A stretch of DNA of 4,207 nucleotides, taken from NCBI RefSeq assembly GCF_003334815.1, contig NZ_QOWO01000078.1; one strand, written 5' to 3'. The notes beneath the pieces were generated by a model that made no database searches, was not told where the DNA came from, and worked only from the letters and a program-made list of their open reading frames with translations. The first letter of the stretch is position 1. The number at the start of each line of letters is the position of its first letter. This DNA comes from Escherichia coli. GTDB lineage: Bacteria; Pseudomonadota; Gammaproteobacteria; Enterobacterales; Enterobacteriaceae. This document shows, piece after piece, positions 259 to 4,207 of this stretch. Position numbers and translations under genes: made by a program.

Positions 259-855
259 TCACCGGAGAATATCTGTGATATCCACAAGTTTTCTGTCGCA
301 CAGCCAGTCCTGCGCTTCACGCACCACGCTACTGTCGGGTTTCACCGCTTTCAGCGATGATGCCAGTCGCTTGATCAACATAACCAGTTCCCGTGTCTGT
401 ATGTCCGGCATTGTCTCCGGCGGAGCAGAGGGACTCTCATTTCCGACGCCCATCCCATGCGCTTCCAGTGTGGCACGGACAAACCAGGCGGCATCGACCA
501 GTTGCTGGCGAATCCAGGTCAGATCGGCATTTCTGTCACGGGCTGCCATTCGCTCACCCGACAGCGCCTTGCTGATATGGCTGCGCACCAGATTATCCAG
601 GAGTTCCTGCGCTTCTTCCGGTGAAAAGCCACCTGGTATCTCTGTGCGCAACAGTCCTTTCCTGTACAGTAGCTGCAGCAGATCAATCTGCGACCGCACT
701 GCAACTATCAGTACATAACGGACAATATTCGCACTGGCGGTGGTTTCTGTATCATTCAGCAGTTCCTCCGGATCATTACCACCGGTATTGCAGAGCAACG
801 GCAACAGAGGTCGCATCCACACAGGAACCTGATATTGTTCGTCTGATTTCATCAT
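259..855 (-). CDS. Uncharacterised 198-aa protein translationally coupled to psiA (hypothetical leading-region protein)
   Basis: Minus-strand ORF ending at TGA 259..261. I place the start at ATG 853..855, which overlaps the psiA stop (ATGA) and has GGAGAA 6 nt upstream. The track's longer version begins at a GTG (886..888) inside psiA. The translation starts [21 protein letters not shown]; I recognise no domain in it. Confidence 0.75.
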   Translation of the reverse strand: MMKSDEQYQVPVWMRPLLPLLCNTGGNDPEELLNDTETTASANIVRYVLIVAVRSQIDLLQLLYRKGLLRTEIPGGFSPEEAQELLDNLVRSHISKALSGERMAARDRNADLTWIRQQLVDAAWFVRATLEAHGMGVGNESPSAPPETMPDIQTRELVMLIKRLASSLKAVKPDSSVVREAQDWLCDRKLVDITDILR

Positions 856-1571
856 ATTGCGTTCTCCAGCTTGTTCGGGATCATCCACTGCTCAAGTGCA
901 CGTACCTGTACCGGTGCACCACGACCGGCCTCACCGGCTTCAAAAATCAGCCGCCAGAGTGGTTCCTCCTGCCAGAAAAACCGGTCAAATGATGACAGTG
1001 ATGGAAAACGCCCGCACCACCCCCAGAAAATCGTTTCCAGATCATGCTCCTCAACAACACCAGACCAGCGGGACAACCAGCTTCCGACCGTGGCGGGAGT
1101 ATGAAACGCAAGGTCAATCTGCGCCTGAGCAAAACATGTCTGGTATTCCAGTTCCCGTCGTTCTGCCTCACGTTCCCGCTGGCGGCTGTATTTCTGCTCT
1201 GTCAGCGTGGTTTTCTGACGACGCCGCTCACCTTCACGAAAAGGAACGGACGGGAACAGACGATGCCCCGCATCGGATGGCAGGGGAAGAACACAGACTT
1301 CACCAAAACTTTCAATCAGTTTATCCACGGCAGCCAGCCACAGGAGACGGTTGCCATGAAATTCCTCCTTCGTCAGCGCAGGAGCAAAAAAGCGGAGATC
1401 GGTCAGCGAAATCCGGCGACTGCCATTCAGGCAGCGAAAGAAAGCGCTGGCATAAGGCCATGCTGAAAGTGTGCGTCCCTGACGACGACGTTGTTCGGTG
1501 ACAGCCACAGCCTGCATGGCGGCCTGTTGCTCTGCGCTGAGGGGGATCAGTGCCCGTGAACGTGCGCTCAT
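852..1571 (-). CDS. psiA: PsiA, plasmid SOS-inhibition protein A family (239 aa)
   Basis: 239 codons, the F PsiA length, lying immediately downstream of psiB as in known leading regions. ATG at 1569..1571 overlaps the psiB stop (ATGA) and is preceded by a consensus AGGAGG 6 nt upstream, inside the psiB 3' end. The N-terminal stretch [18 protein letters not shown] ... [19 protein letters not shown] fits my recollection of PsiA. Confidence 0.85.
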
Positions 1572-2002
1572 GCCTGACCTCCTTCTGCCATCAGGATATG
1601 GATGATGTCGTTAACACTGTACCCCTGCGCATCAAGTGTCGCGGCAAGCGCCAGCGTGTGACTGATAGCGACAGGCGTGAAGATATGTTGCACCTGAACG
1701 ACGGAGAAAGGCTGTCCACCACAATTCACCAGAACCAGCATCCAGAGCTGAGAGACGTCTCCCGGCGAACATAATGCCAGGTGGAAACGTTCGTGGGCTG
1801 GCGTGAAACGAACCTGGACGGGGAAAAAGCCCCCGAACTCACTGCCATACTCGCCATTCATCATCCAGTTAGCCGGTGCGTCCACTTCACGCATCACCTC
1901 GTGAGTGAGATTACGGCGCATATCGCTTCCCGCAGCACGGATATCTTCATATTCCTGTGCGTTCATGGACTGCAGGGCATTCAGGGTCAGTTCAGTTTTC
2001 AT
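1568..2002 (-). CDS. psiB: PsiB, plasmid SOS-inhibition protein B (RecA-binding anti-SOS protein), 144 aa
   Basis: 144 codons from ATG 2000..2002, with GGGAGA 7 nt upstream. The translation ([27 protein letters not shown] ... [36 protein letters not shown] ... [18 protein letters not shown]) matches my recollection of F-plasmid PsiB along its length, and 144 aa is the PsiB size. The track's extra N-terminal M is a GTG at 2003..2005 with poorer SD spacing. Confidence 0.88.
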
Positions 2003-2021
2003 CACGGTATCTCCCTTGCTG

Positions 2022-2044
2022 CCGCCCCGTCTCCGGCGGGGCGG
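2022..2044 (-). promoter_or_regulatory. Intercistronic GC-rich stem-loop between the ParB-like gene and psiB (8-bp stem, 7-nt loop)
   Basis: Plus strand CCGCCCCG-tctccgg-CGGGGCGG, perfect 8-bp inverted repeat. It lies 12 nt after the ParB-like stop and immediately upstream of the psiB SD. No U-tract follows on the mRNA strand. Confidence 0.4.
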
Positions 2045-4015: not shown

Positions 4016-4045
4016 GATTATTCCCCTTACGGTTTAGTTAATGTC

Positions 4046-4070
4046 TGCCGGACGTCATCCCCGTCCGGCA
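4046..4070 (-). promoter_or_regulatory. Intercistronic GC-rich stem-loop upstream of the ParB-like gene (9-bp stem, 7-nt loop)
   Basis: Plus strand tGCCGGACG-tcatccc-CGTCCGGCa, perfect inverted repeat. It lies 10 nt after the upstream TAA and about 30 nt before the ParB-like ATG. No U-tract follows on the mRNA strand, so it is not a canonical intrinsic terminator. Confidence 0.4.
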
Positions 4071-4076
4071 CCTCTC

Positions 4077-4207
4077 TTACTTACGAATGCCGAAATCCCT
4101 GATGTACCGGTTCATCCAGTACCCGGCACAGTCCTCAAAATTCCAGGAGCGCCAGATCAACGTGCCATCCTGACGGACAACCAGGCGAAAATGCGTTCCC
4201 TGATCAT
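4077..4207 (-). CDS. 3' end of a small upstream gene (partial, 5' end beyond the window); possibly a DUF905/YkfF-like small protein
   Basis: Minus-strand frame is open for 42 codons from the window edge to TAA at 4077..4079 and translates as [42 protein letters not shown]. The other two minus frames stop earlier (4157..4159 and 4135..4137). The tail resembles, from memory only, the C-terminus of DUF905-type small proteins found in plasmid leading regions and CP4-type islands. Same strand as the downstream operon. Confidence 0.4.

Follow-up and report, generated by a model that had tools for sequence, protein, structure and literature searches.

An operon of leading-region genes

The DNA analysed here, a stretch of 4,207 nucleotides (nt) from Escherichia coli (assembly GCF_003334815.1, contig NZ_QOWO01000078.1; called the window throughout, the given strand being the plus strand), carries most of an establishment operon of the ssi3/Frpo2 type, which comprises ssb, DUF905, a ParB-like gene, psiB, psiA and orf198. 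The window very probably lies within the leading region of an I-complex conjugative plasmid (IncI1/Iγ/K/Z-type, NikB/MOBP), approximately 5,700–9,900 nt from the nick in the origin of transfer (oriT). The analysis itself established gene identities, synteny, the strand of the nick motif, the folds of the hairpins and the homology to plasmids on which experiments have been done. The five genes present are co-directional and lie on the minus strand, as seen in the open reading frame (ORF) listing and in the annotation of near-identical records; the order of a small gene, a ParB-like gene, psiB and psiA on a single strand, read from the letters alone in a preliminary description of the window, is thereby confirmed. 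In window coordinates, the genes are as follows, with lengths in amino acids (aa):

4077–4207, minus strand: 3′ portion of a DUF905 gene of the ykfF/yfjA family (77 aa in full), from the annotation of near-identical records
2057–4015, minus strand: ParB-like gene, 652 aa, from the ORF and Pfam
1568–2002, minus strand: psiB, 144 aa, from NCBIfam NF010255; the product is a conjugation-system SOS inhibitor that blocks RecA activation
852–1571, minus strand: psiA, 239 aa, from NCBIfam NF010258; the product is the plasmid SOS inhibition protein A
259–855, minus strand: orf198, 198 aa, the last gene of the operon, from the ORF and annotation

The window holds the 3′ 131 nt of the 234-nt DUF905 gene, the remainder of which extends to window-equivalent position 4310 in near-identical plasmids, and the full DUF905 protein matches phrog_8779. 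PsiB scores 266.7 bits with the NCBIfam equivalog model NF010255 (cut-off 100) and PsiA 376.5 bits with NF010258 (cut-off 243), so that both earlier assignments survive a database search with scores far above the curated cut-offs. The position of psiA directly downstream of psiB is that required of an F/I-type leading region. Synteny of ssb, DUF905, the ParB-like gene, psiB and psiA on one strand, with DUF905 to psiA inside the window, is completed by ssb: six near-identical plasmids, as well as pESBL and F, carry it directly upstream of DUF905. Stop and start codons overlap as ATGA at both the psiB/psiA and the psiA/orf198 junctions, an arrangement typical of an operon whose genes would be translationally coupled.

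When the whole 4.2-kb window was scanned with a promoter consensus, the minus strand yielded no sigma-70-like site; the plus strand gave two weak promoter-like matches, compared with 1.4 expected by chance. The gap at 4016–4076, between the DUF905 and ParB-like genes, is without promoter-like hexamers and contains only a GC stem-loop and a ribosome-binding site. These results bear out the earlier proposal that the operon has no promoter inside the window. A consensus terminator scan of the coding strand of the window likewise returned no terminator. GC-rich stem-loops of 8–9 bp occupy both intergenic gaps of the operon:

4046–4070, minus strand: 9-bp GC stem-loop, lacking a U tract, between the DUF905 and ParB-like genes (RNA fold z −3.3)
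2022–2044, minus strand: 8-bp GC stem-loop, lacking a U tract, between the ParB-like gene and psiB (RNA fold z −2.2)

The surroundings of the window were inspected in six near-identical plasmid records from Salmonella, E. coli, E. fergusonii and E. albertii (99.3–99.8% identity), which share one layout. On the left, nikB-nikA, oriT, a mobC-like gene, a DUF4942 gene, a helix-turn-helix gene, an Rpn gene, two small ORFs and ardA lead up to the window; on the right, the window is followed by ssb, two small ORFs, a DUF1380 gene, a klcA/ardB-type antirestriction gene and, further out, a DNA methylase gene. Judging from these relatives, ssb and the operon promoter lie just outside the right end of the window.

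The transferred strand and the single-strand promoters

The position of oriT was sought in the intergenic region between nikA and the mobC-like gene of a near-identical relative (L001). A 17-nt inverted repeat on the plus strand (L001 14242–14258 and 14265–14281) is followed by CATCCTGT at 14283–14290, also on the plus strand, which presents the MOBP nick motif CATCCTG|T (the bar marks the nick) with the nick 8 nt from the inverted repeat; the oriT expected to the left of the window accordingly reads GCAATTGTAATAGCGTC...GACGGTATTACAATTGCACATCCTG|T on the plus strand. The MOBP nick consensus is (C/T)ATCCTG|(C/T) with an inverted repeat immediately 5′ of it; the relaxase binds the 5′ side and ends up attached to the 5′ end made by the cut (PMC3772185). 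Because the nick motif and its 5′-proximal repeat lie on the plus strand, in all four loci that include oriT, and fit the MOBP consensus and polarity, the plus strand is the transferred strand (T-strand). The genes are on the minus strand and the incoming plus strand is therefore their template, with transcription directed toward oriT, as had been proposed from gene order. F served as a control, and there the nick sequence, GTGGGGTGT|GGTGCT, is likewise on the strand opposite to ssb-psiB. Matches to YATCCTGY are frequent in L001 (10 in 28 kb, compared with 3.4 expected; none of 100 shuffles reached 10); eight of the 10 are on the plus strand, and the copy at 14283–14290 is the only one adjoined by the 17-nt inverted repeat.

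The nick lies 5,711 nt to the left of window position 1 in L001, and oriT is found at 5.7 kb on that side in four related plasmids, in keeping with the earlier placement of oriT beyond coordinate 1. The distance from oriT is thus below approximately 13 kb, and the window is on the flank that goes into the recipient first, with nikA/nikB beyond the nick, as read from the relatives and not from the window's own contig. The hok/sok genes and lytic transglycosylase that had also been expected on the left are characteristic of F, and the relatives have neither between the window and oriT; a Hok gene is present elsewhere in the I-complex relatives, beyond trbA.

A repeat search of the leading region gave two families of non-coding elements. 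Family A has three copies, upstream of the DUF4942 gene, of a 435-bp ORF and of ssb, and is homologous to Frpo1 and Frpo2 of F. Family B is represented twice, once upstream of ardA and once upstream of the klcA-type gene; its copies show 94% identity between themselves, 94% to the element that precedes the klcA homologue in F and 93–95% to the pESBL elements. Judged by sequence, families A and B correspond to the “class 1” (ssi1-3/Frpo) and “class 2” (ardA, klcA) single-stranded-DNA (ssDNA) promoters that RNA sequencing (RNA-seq) and 5′ rapid amplification of cDNA ends (RACE) brought to light in pESBL; the class 2 promoters in front of ardA and klcA were identified there by 5′ RACE (PMC12672017). 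The elements that bear on the window and its two flanks are the following:

window-equivalent 4367–4894, in relatives: ssb
window-equivalent approximately 4895–5625, outside the window: Frpo-homologous hairpin, the predicted operon promoter, from homology to F Frpo1/Frpo2
1–157, plus strand: putative class 2 ssDNA promoter of ardA, the right-hand part of an approximately 350-nt non-coding repeat, from homology and fold

The family A copy upstream of ssb is the predicted promoter of the window operon. Its hairpin (L001 24895–25277) folds with z −9.8 on the plus strand versus −7.2 on the minus strand. These two neighbours agree with the earlier expectation of ssb and a Frpo-type hairpin to the right. 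That single-strand promoters would lie beyond 4207 holds for this operon and fails for the ardA promoter, which straddles coordinate 1; similarly, of the ardA/klcA-type genes anticipated on the right, the klcA/ardB-type gene is there, while ardA, at window-equivalent −704 to −204, is found toward oriT. An Rfam scan of the 14-kb leading region, with E up to 1, returned only chance-level matches (best E 0.45), so that these hairpins fall outside the curated RNA families.

A separate hairpin promoter, which would act likewise for ardA, takes in the left 157 nt of the window. The ardA copy of the class 2 element spans window positions −196 to 157, with ardA just to the left of the window, and forms an imperfect hairpin of approximately 265 nt (plus strand −116 kcal/mol, z −7.2, versus z −3.8 for the minus strand). 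As in the class 2 promoters of pESBL and F, window 1–157 together with approximately 200 nt leftward makes a long imperfect hairpin with −35/−10-like hexamers; the difference is that only its 3′ arm (9–92) is inside the window, the 5′ arm lying outside at −100 to −178. A −35-like TTGCAT (25–30) is fully paired in this fold, and a −10-like TAAGAT (46–51) is paired except for AAG, which forms a 3-nt bulge. Both hexamers are invariant in three class 2 copies, and their assignment is tentative, with a 15-nt spacer and a −35 that matches the consensus at three of six positions. A compensatory base change between the hairpin arms was considered and rejected, as the differences of the klcA copy in the −35/−10 spacer are not compensatory.

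These elements suggest how the operon may be expressed. During mating, NikB would nick the plus strand at oriT, and the nicked strand would enter the recipient 5′ end first. The long imperfect hairpin upstream of ssb would restore double-stranded −35 and −10 elements within the single strand, enabling the host RNA polymerase to transcribe toward oriT with the incoming plus strand as template. The outcome would be a transient burst of SSB and of PsiB, blocking RecA and SOS induction, accompanied by PsiA and by the ParB-like protein, ahead of complementary-strand synthesis; that synthesis would then destroy the hairpin promoters and end expression of the leading genes.

This mechanism has been published for close relatives; single-strand transcription and zygotic induction of the window operon are inferred from experiments reported for ColIb-P9, for pESBL (to which the identity is 96%) and for F. 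Early ssDNA-driven induction has been shown in the IncI1 leading region (PMC12672017; Bates et al., 1999, as reported by citing papers). In pESBL, six early-induced leading-region operons have ssDNA promoters with start sites determined by 5′ RACE, and induction reaches up to approximately 500-fold at 15 min (PMC12672017). In IncIγ extended-spectrum β-lactamase (ESBL) plasmids, the ssi3 operon is described as ssb-ykfF-yfhA-psiB-psiA (PMC10104558). Deletion of Frpo2 in F abolishes early expression of ssb and yfjA (PMC9849209), and an anti-CRISPR gene protected incoming plasmids only if it was placed in the leading region with this same orientation (PMC11541004).

The genes could instead be expressed mainly from ordinary double-stranded promoters, or their products be delivered as proteins via the T4SS (a type IV secretion system), in which case the template-strand orientation would have little functional meaning. 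The finding that the Frpo2 deletion did not lower the transfer frequency of F (PMC9849209) speaks for this explanation, but it is very unlikely given the loss of early ssb and yfjA expression in the same deletion, the lack of a sigma-70-like site on the coding strand within 4.2 kb, the strong early induction in pESBL from starts that map at hairpins, and the restriction of anti-CRISPR protection to one region and one orientation. Transcription from the incoming single strand remains the explanation that we prefer.

Identity of the plasmid

The comparison with plasmid databases called for in the preliminary description returned at least 5000 matching records, the best of which match the window at 99.8% identity over 100% of its length (IncIγ/K1 plasmids). 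All six of the near-identical records inspected are conjugative MOBP, MPF_I plasmids of the types IncIγ/K1 or IncK2/Z, and each has the NikA/NikB (MOBP) relaxosome, an R64-type oriT and MPF_I transfer genes, which are properties of the relatives and not of the window itself. The assignment of the window to a leading region is borne out by these I-complex plasmids, in which nikB-nikA-oriT, ardA, the window, ssb and the klcA-type gene follow in this order. Matches are present in 3811 of 5426 complete E. coli genomes (70%).

The relatives are not uniformly intact: insertions and rearrangements were seen at differing places of the leading region in L004 (12002–13903), L002 (17199–18568), L006 (4199–5568 and 15600–18207) and a further hit (H5). 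They comprise a group II intron that separates ssb from its hairpin promoter, IS150 between the 435-bp ORF and ardA, the IS21-like ISEc12 inside the region equivalent to the window, and the klcA block present as an inverted duplication.

The window most closely resembles the IncI1 plasmids ColIb-P9, R64 and pESBL-EA11, with which it shares gene order, orientation, position relative to nikAB/oriT and the presence of ardA on the oriT side, as well as three Frpo-like (class 1) repeats and a pair of class 2 elements. Collinearity with pESBL-EA11, the plasmid in which early transcription of this region from ssDNA was measured, extends over 10.4 kb of the leading region, at 96.5% identity. The differences are approximately 4% divergence and, relative to the nearest plasmids, a 218-bp mosaic patch in the window; there is no difference of kind.

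A second comparison is with the Frpo2 operon of F (ssb-yfjA-yfjB-psiB-psiA-flmC), which has the same five-gene core, is directed toward oriT and uses the T-strand as template. The ParB-like protein is 93% and PsiB 84% identical to the F homologues, the Frpo hairpins are homologous, and in both systems the nick is on the strand opposite the genes. In contrast, F has a MOBF relaxase and another nick sequence, and after psiA it has flm/hok followed by DUF932 and SLT transglycosylase genes, where here psiA is followed by orf198 and then, just outside the window, by ardA. An origin of the window in such an F-like (MOBF) plasmid, with the same operon and strand logic and with hok/flm, the transglycosylase gene X and oriT as neighbours, would account for the shared ssb-DUF905-ParB-like-psiB-psiA block, for the 85% identity of window 996–4207 to F DNA and for the 80–90% identity, and no higher, at which 2783 of the best 5000 plasmid records match. 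It is nevertheless highly improbable: all inspected matches of at least 99% identity are MOBP/MPF_I I-complex plasmids, orf198 and the psiA 3′ end are without counterpart in the F leading region, and PsiA is 99% identical to the pESBL protein and only 64% to that of F.

That the window stems from a copy integrated in a chromosome, or from an integrative and conjugative element or prophage, and not from a free conjugative plasmid is scarcely credible, because, although 122 of the 9679 places that match in complete E. coli genomes are chromosomal, 9557 are on plasmids, every record among the best matches listed is of plasmid size (83–123 kb), and a search of a phage collection with the window DNA gave no match.

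Some observations weigh against the placement of the window in an I-complex leading region transcribed from the incoming strand, or limit its reach. The nick position rests on the MOBP consensus and on the mapping of the nick in R64, for which Furuya and Komano, in 1991, reportedly placed it 8 bp from a 17-bp repeat. The flanks of the window are inferred from relatives that are 99.4–99.8% identical and not from its own contig, and insertions at various points of the leading region in relatives (IS150, ISEc12 and the group II intron) imply that the given copy may be disrupted outside the window. In addition, leading-region genes are also expressed to some extent in donors and their products can be translocated as proteins, such that ssDNA transcription is not the sole route (PMC8406263).

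The ParB-like protein, orf198 and the meaning of the locus

The ParB-like protein, named YfhA, YfjB or ParB2 in the literature, resembles the ParB/Spo0J/Noc family of CTP-dependent DNA-clamp proteins in its N-terminal part. Pfam assigns ParB_N (PF02195) and HTH_ParB (PF17762) domains within residues 41–222 only, a GGRRLAA sequence at residue 91 corresponds to the GxRRxxA motif of the family, and solved ParB/Spo0J/Noc structures resemble residues 26–217 only. The protein differs from the family in being approximately twice as long, with a C-terminal region of approximately 430 aa in which Pfam finds no known domain, and in being encoded without an adjacent parA and without an identified parS. 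It scores 55.5 bits with TIGR00180, below the cut-off of 58.45, and falls far below the cut-offs of other ParB models; no ParA-type partner is encoded next to its gene, the neighbours of which are DUF905 and psiB, the plasmid's ParA being elsewhere. On account of the score under the curated cut-off and the lack of a ParA neighbour, we call the gene ParB-like and not a partition protein gene. The protein matches phrog_7783 (listed as of unknown function) over its full length with 841 bits, yet the window DNA is unmatched in the phage collection.

All 10 nucleotide differences between the window and its two closest plasmids (L001 and L004) cluster in a 218-bp stretch of the ParB-like gene (2797–3014), where they result in five amino-acid changes (aa 334–407 of the protein). 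Some of the window alleles in this stretch are also carried by other relatives. The clustering suggests a short recombination or mosaic patch.

The start codon of orf198, which one source names YgaA, overlaps the psiA stop. No Pfam, NCBIfam or PADLOC match was found for orf198, and its PHROG matches are weak, C-terminal and to families of unknown function. Close relatives are found in enterobacterial plasmids only, with 94% identity in pESBL-EA11 and no homologue in the F leading region. An AlphaFold model, built on a shallow 15-sequence alignment, has a mean pLDDT (predicted local distance difference test) score of 44.6 and is too poor to use. Between orf198 and the ardA promoter, the window has two further structures, read on the operon strand:

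170–238, minus strand: strong stem-loop in the operon 3′ untranslated region, directly after the orf198 stop (RNA fold)
97–126, minus strand: GC-rich hairpin GGCCAUGC-GGG-GCAUGGCC, followed by UUGUGGGUUUU (U-rich tail); RNA fold −21.9 kcal/mol, z −1.9

The RNA fold of 141–258, which includes the first of these, is −51.6 kcal/mol (z −4.7), and none of 200 shuffles was as stable. The hairpin at 97–126 is kept in each of the three class 2 copies and was not called in a strict terminator scan; from its place between the operon and the promoter of ardA, it may mark the transcript end of the ssb-to-orf198 operon. It is plausible that the two structures are both transcript ends ahead of the ardA promoter.

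The gene orf198 is specific to the I-complex, has no recognisable domain, is coupled to psiA and occupies the position of flm/hok in F. A reading prompted by these features, which we regard as doubtful, is that orf198 might be an undescribed establishment or anti-defence factor and that, likewise, the 430-aa C-terminal region of the ParB-like protein might hold a new activity; in that event, the orf198 product would be made from the incoming single strand along with PsiB and PsiA.

The operon organisation, strand polarity and single-strand promoters are already known from publications on ColIb-P9, R64, pESBL and F, and the window is a standard and very widespread copy of this leading region. 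The value of the present result lies in a correct annotation and orientation of the window, and in showing that the transferred strand can be deduced successfully from gene order; the questions that the window raises concern only the roles of the ParB-like protein and of orf198. Leading regions such as this one decide the survival of an incoming resistance plasmid in its first minutes in the recipient, through suppression of the SOS response, anti-restriction and protection of ssDNA.

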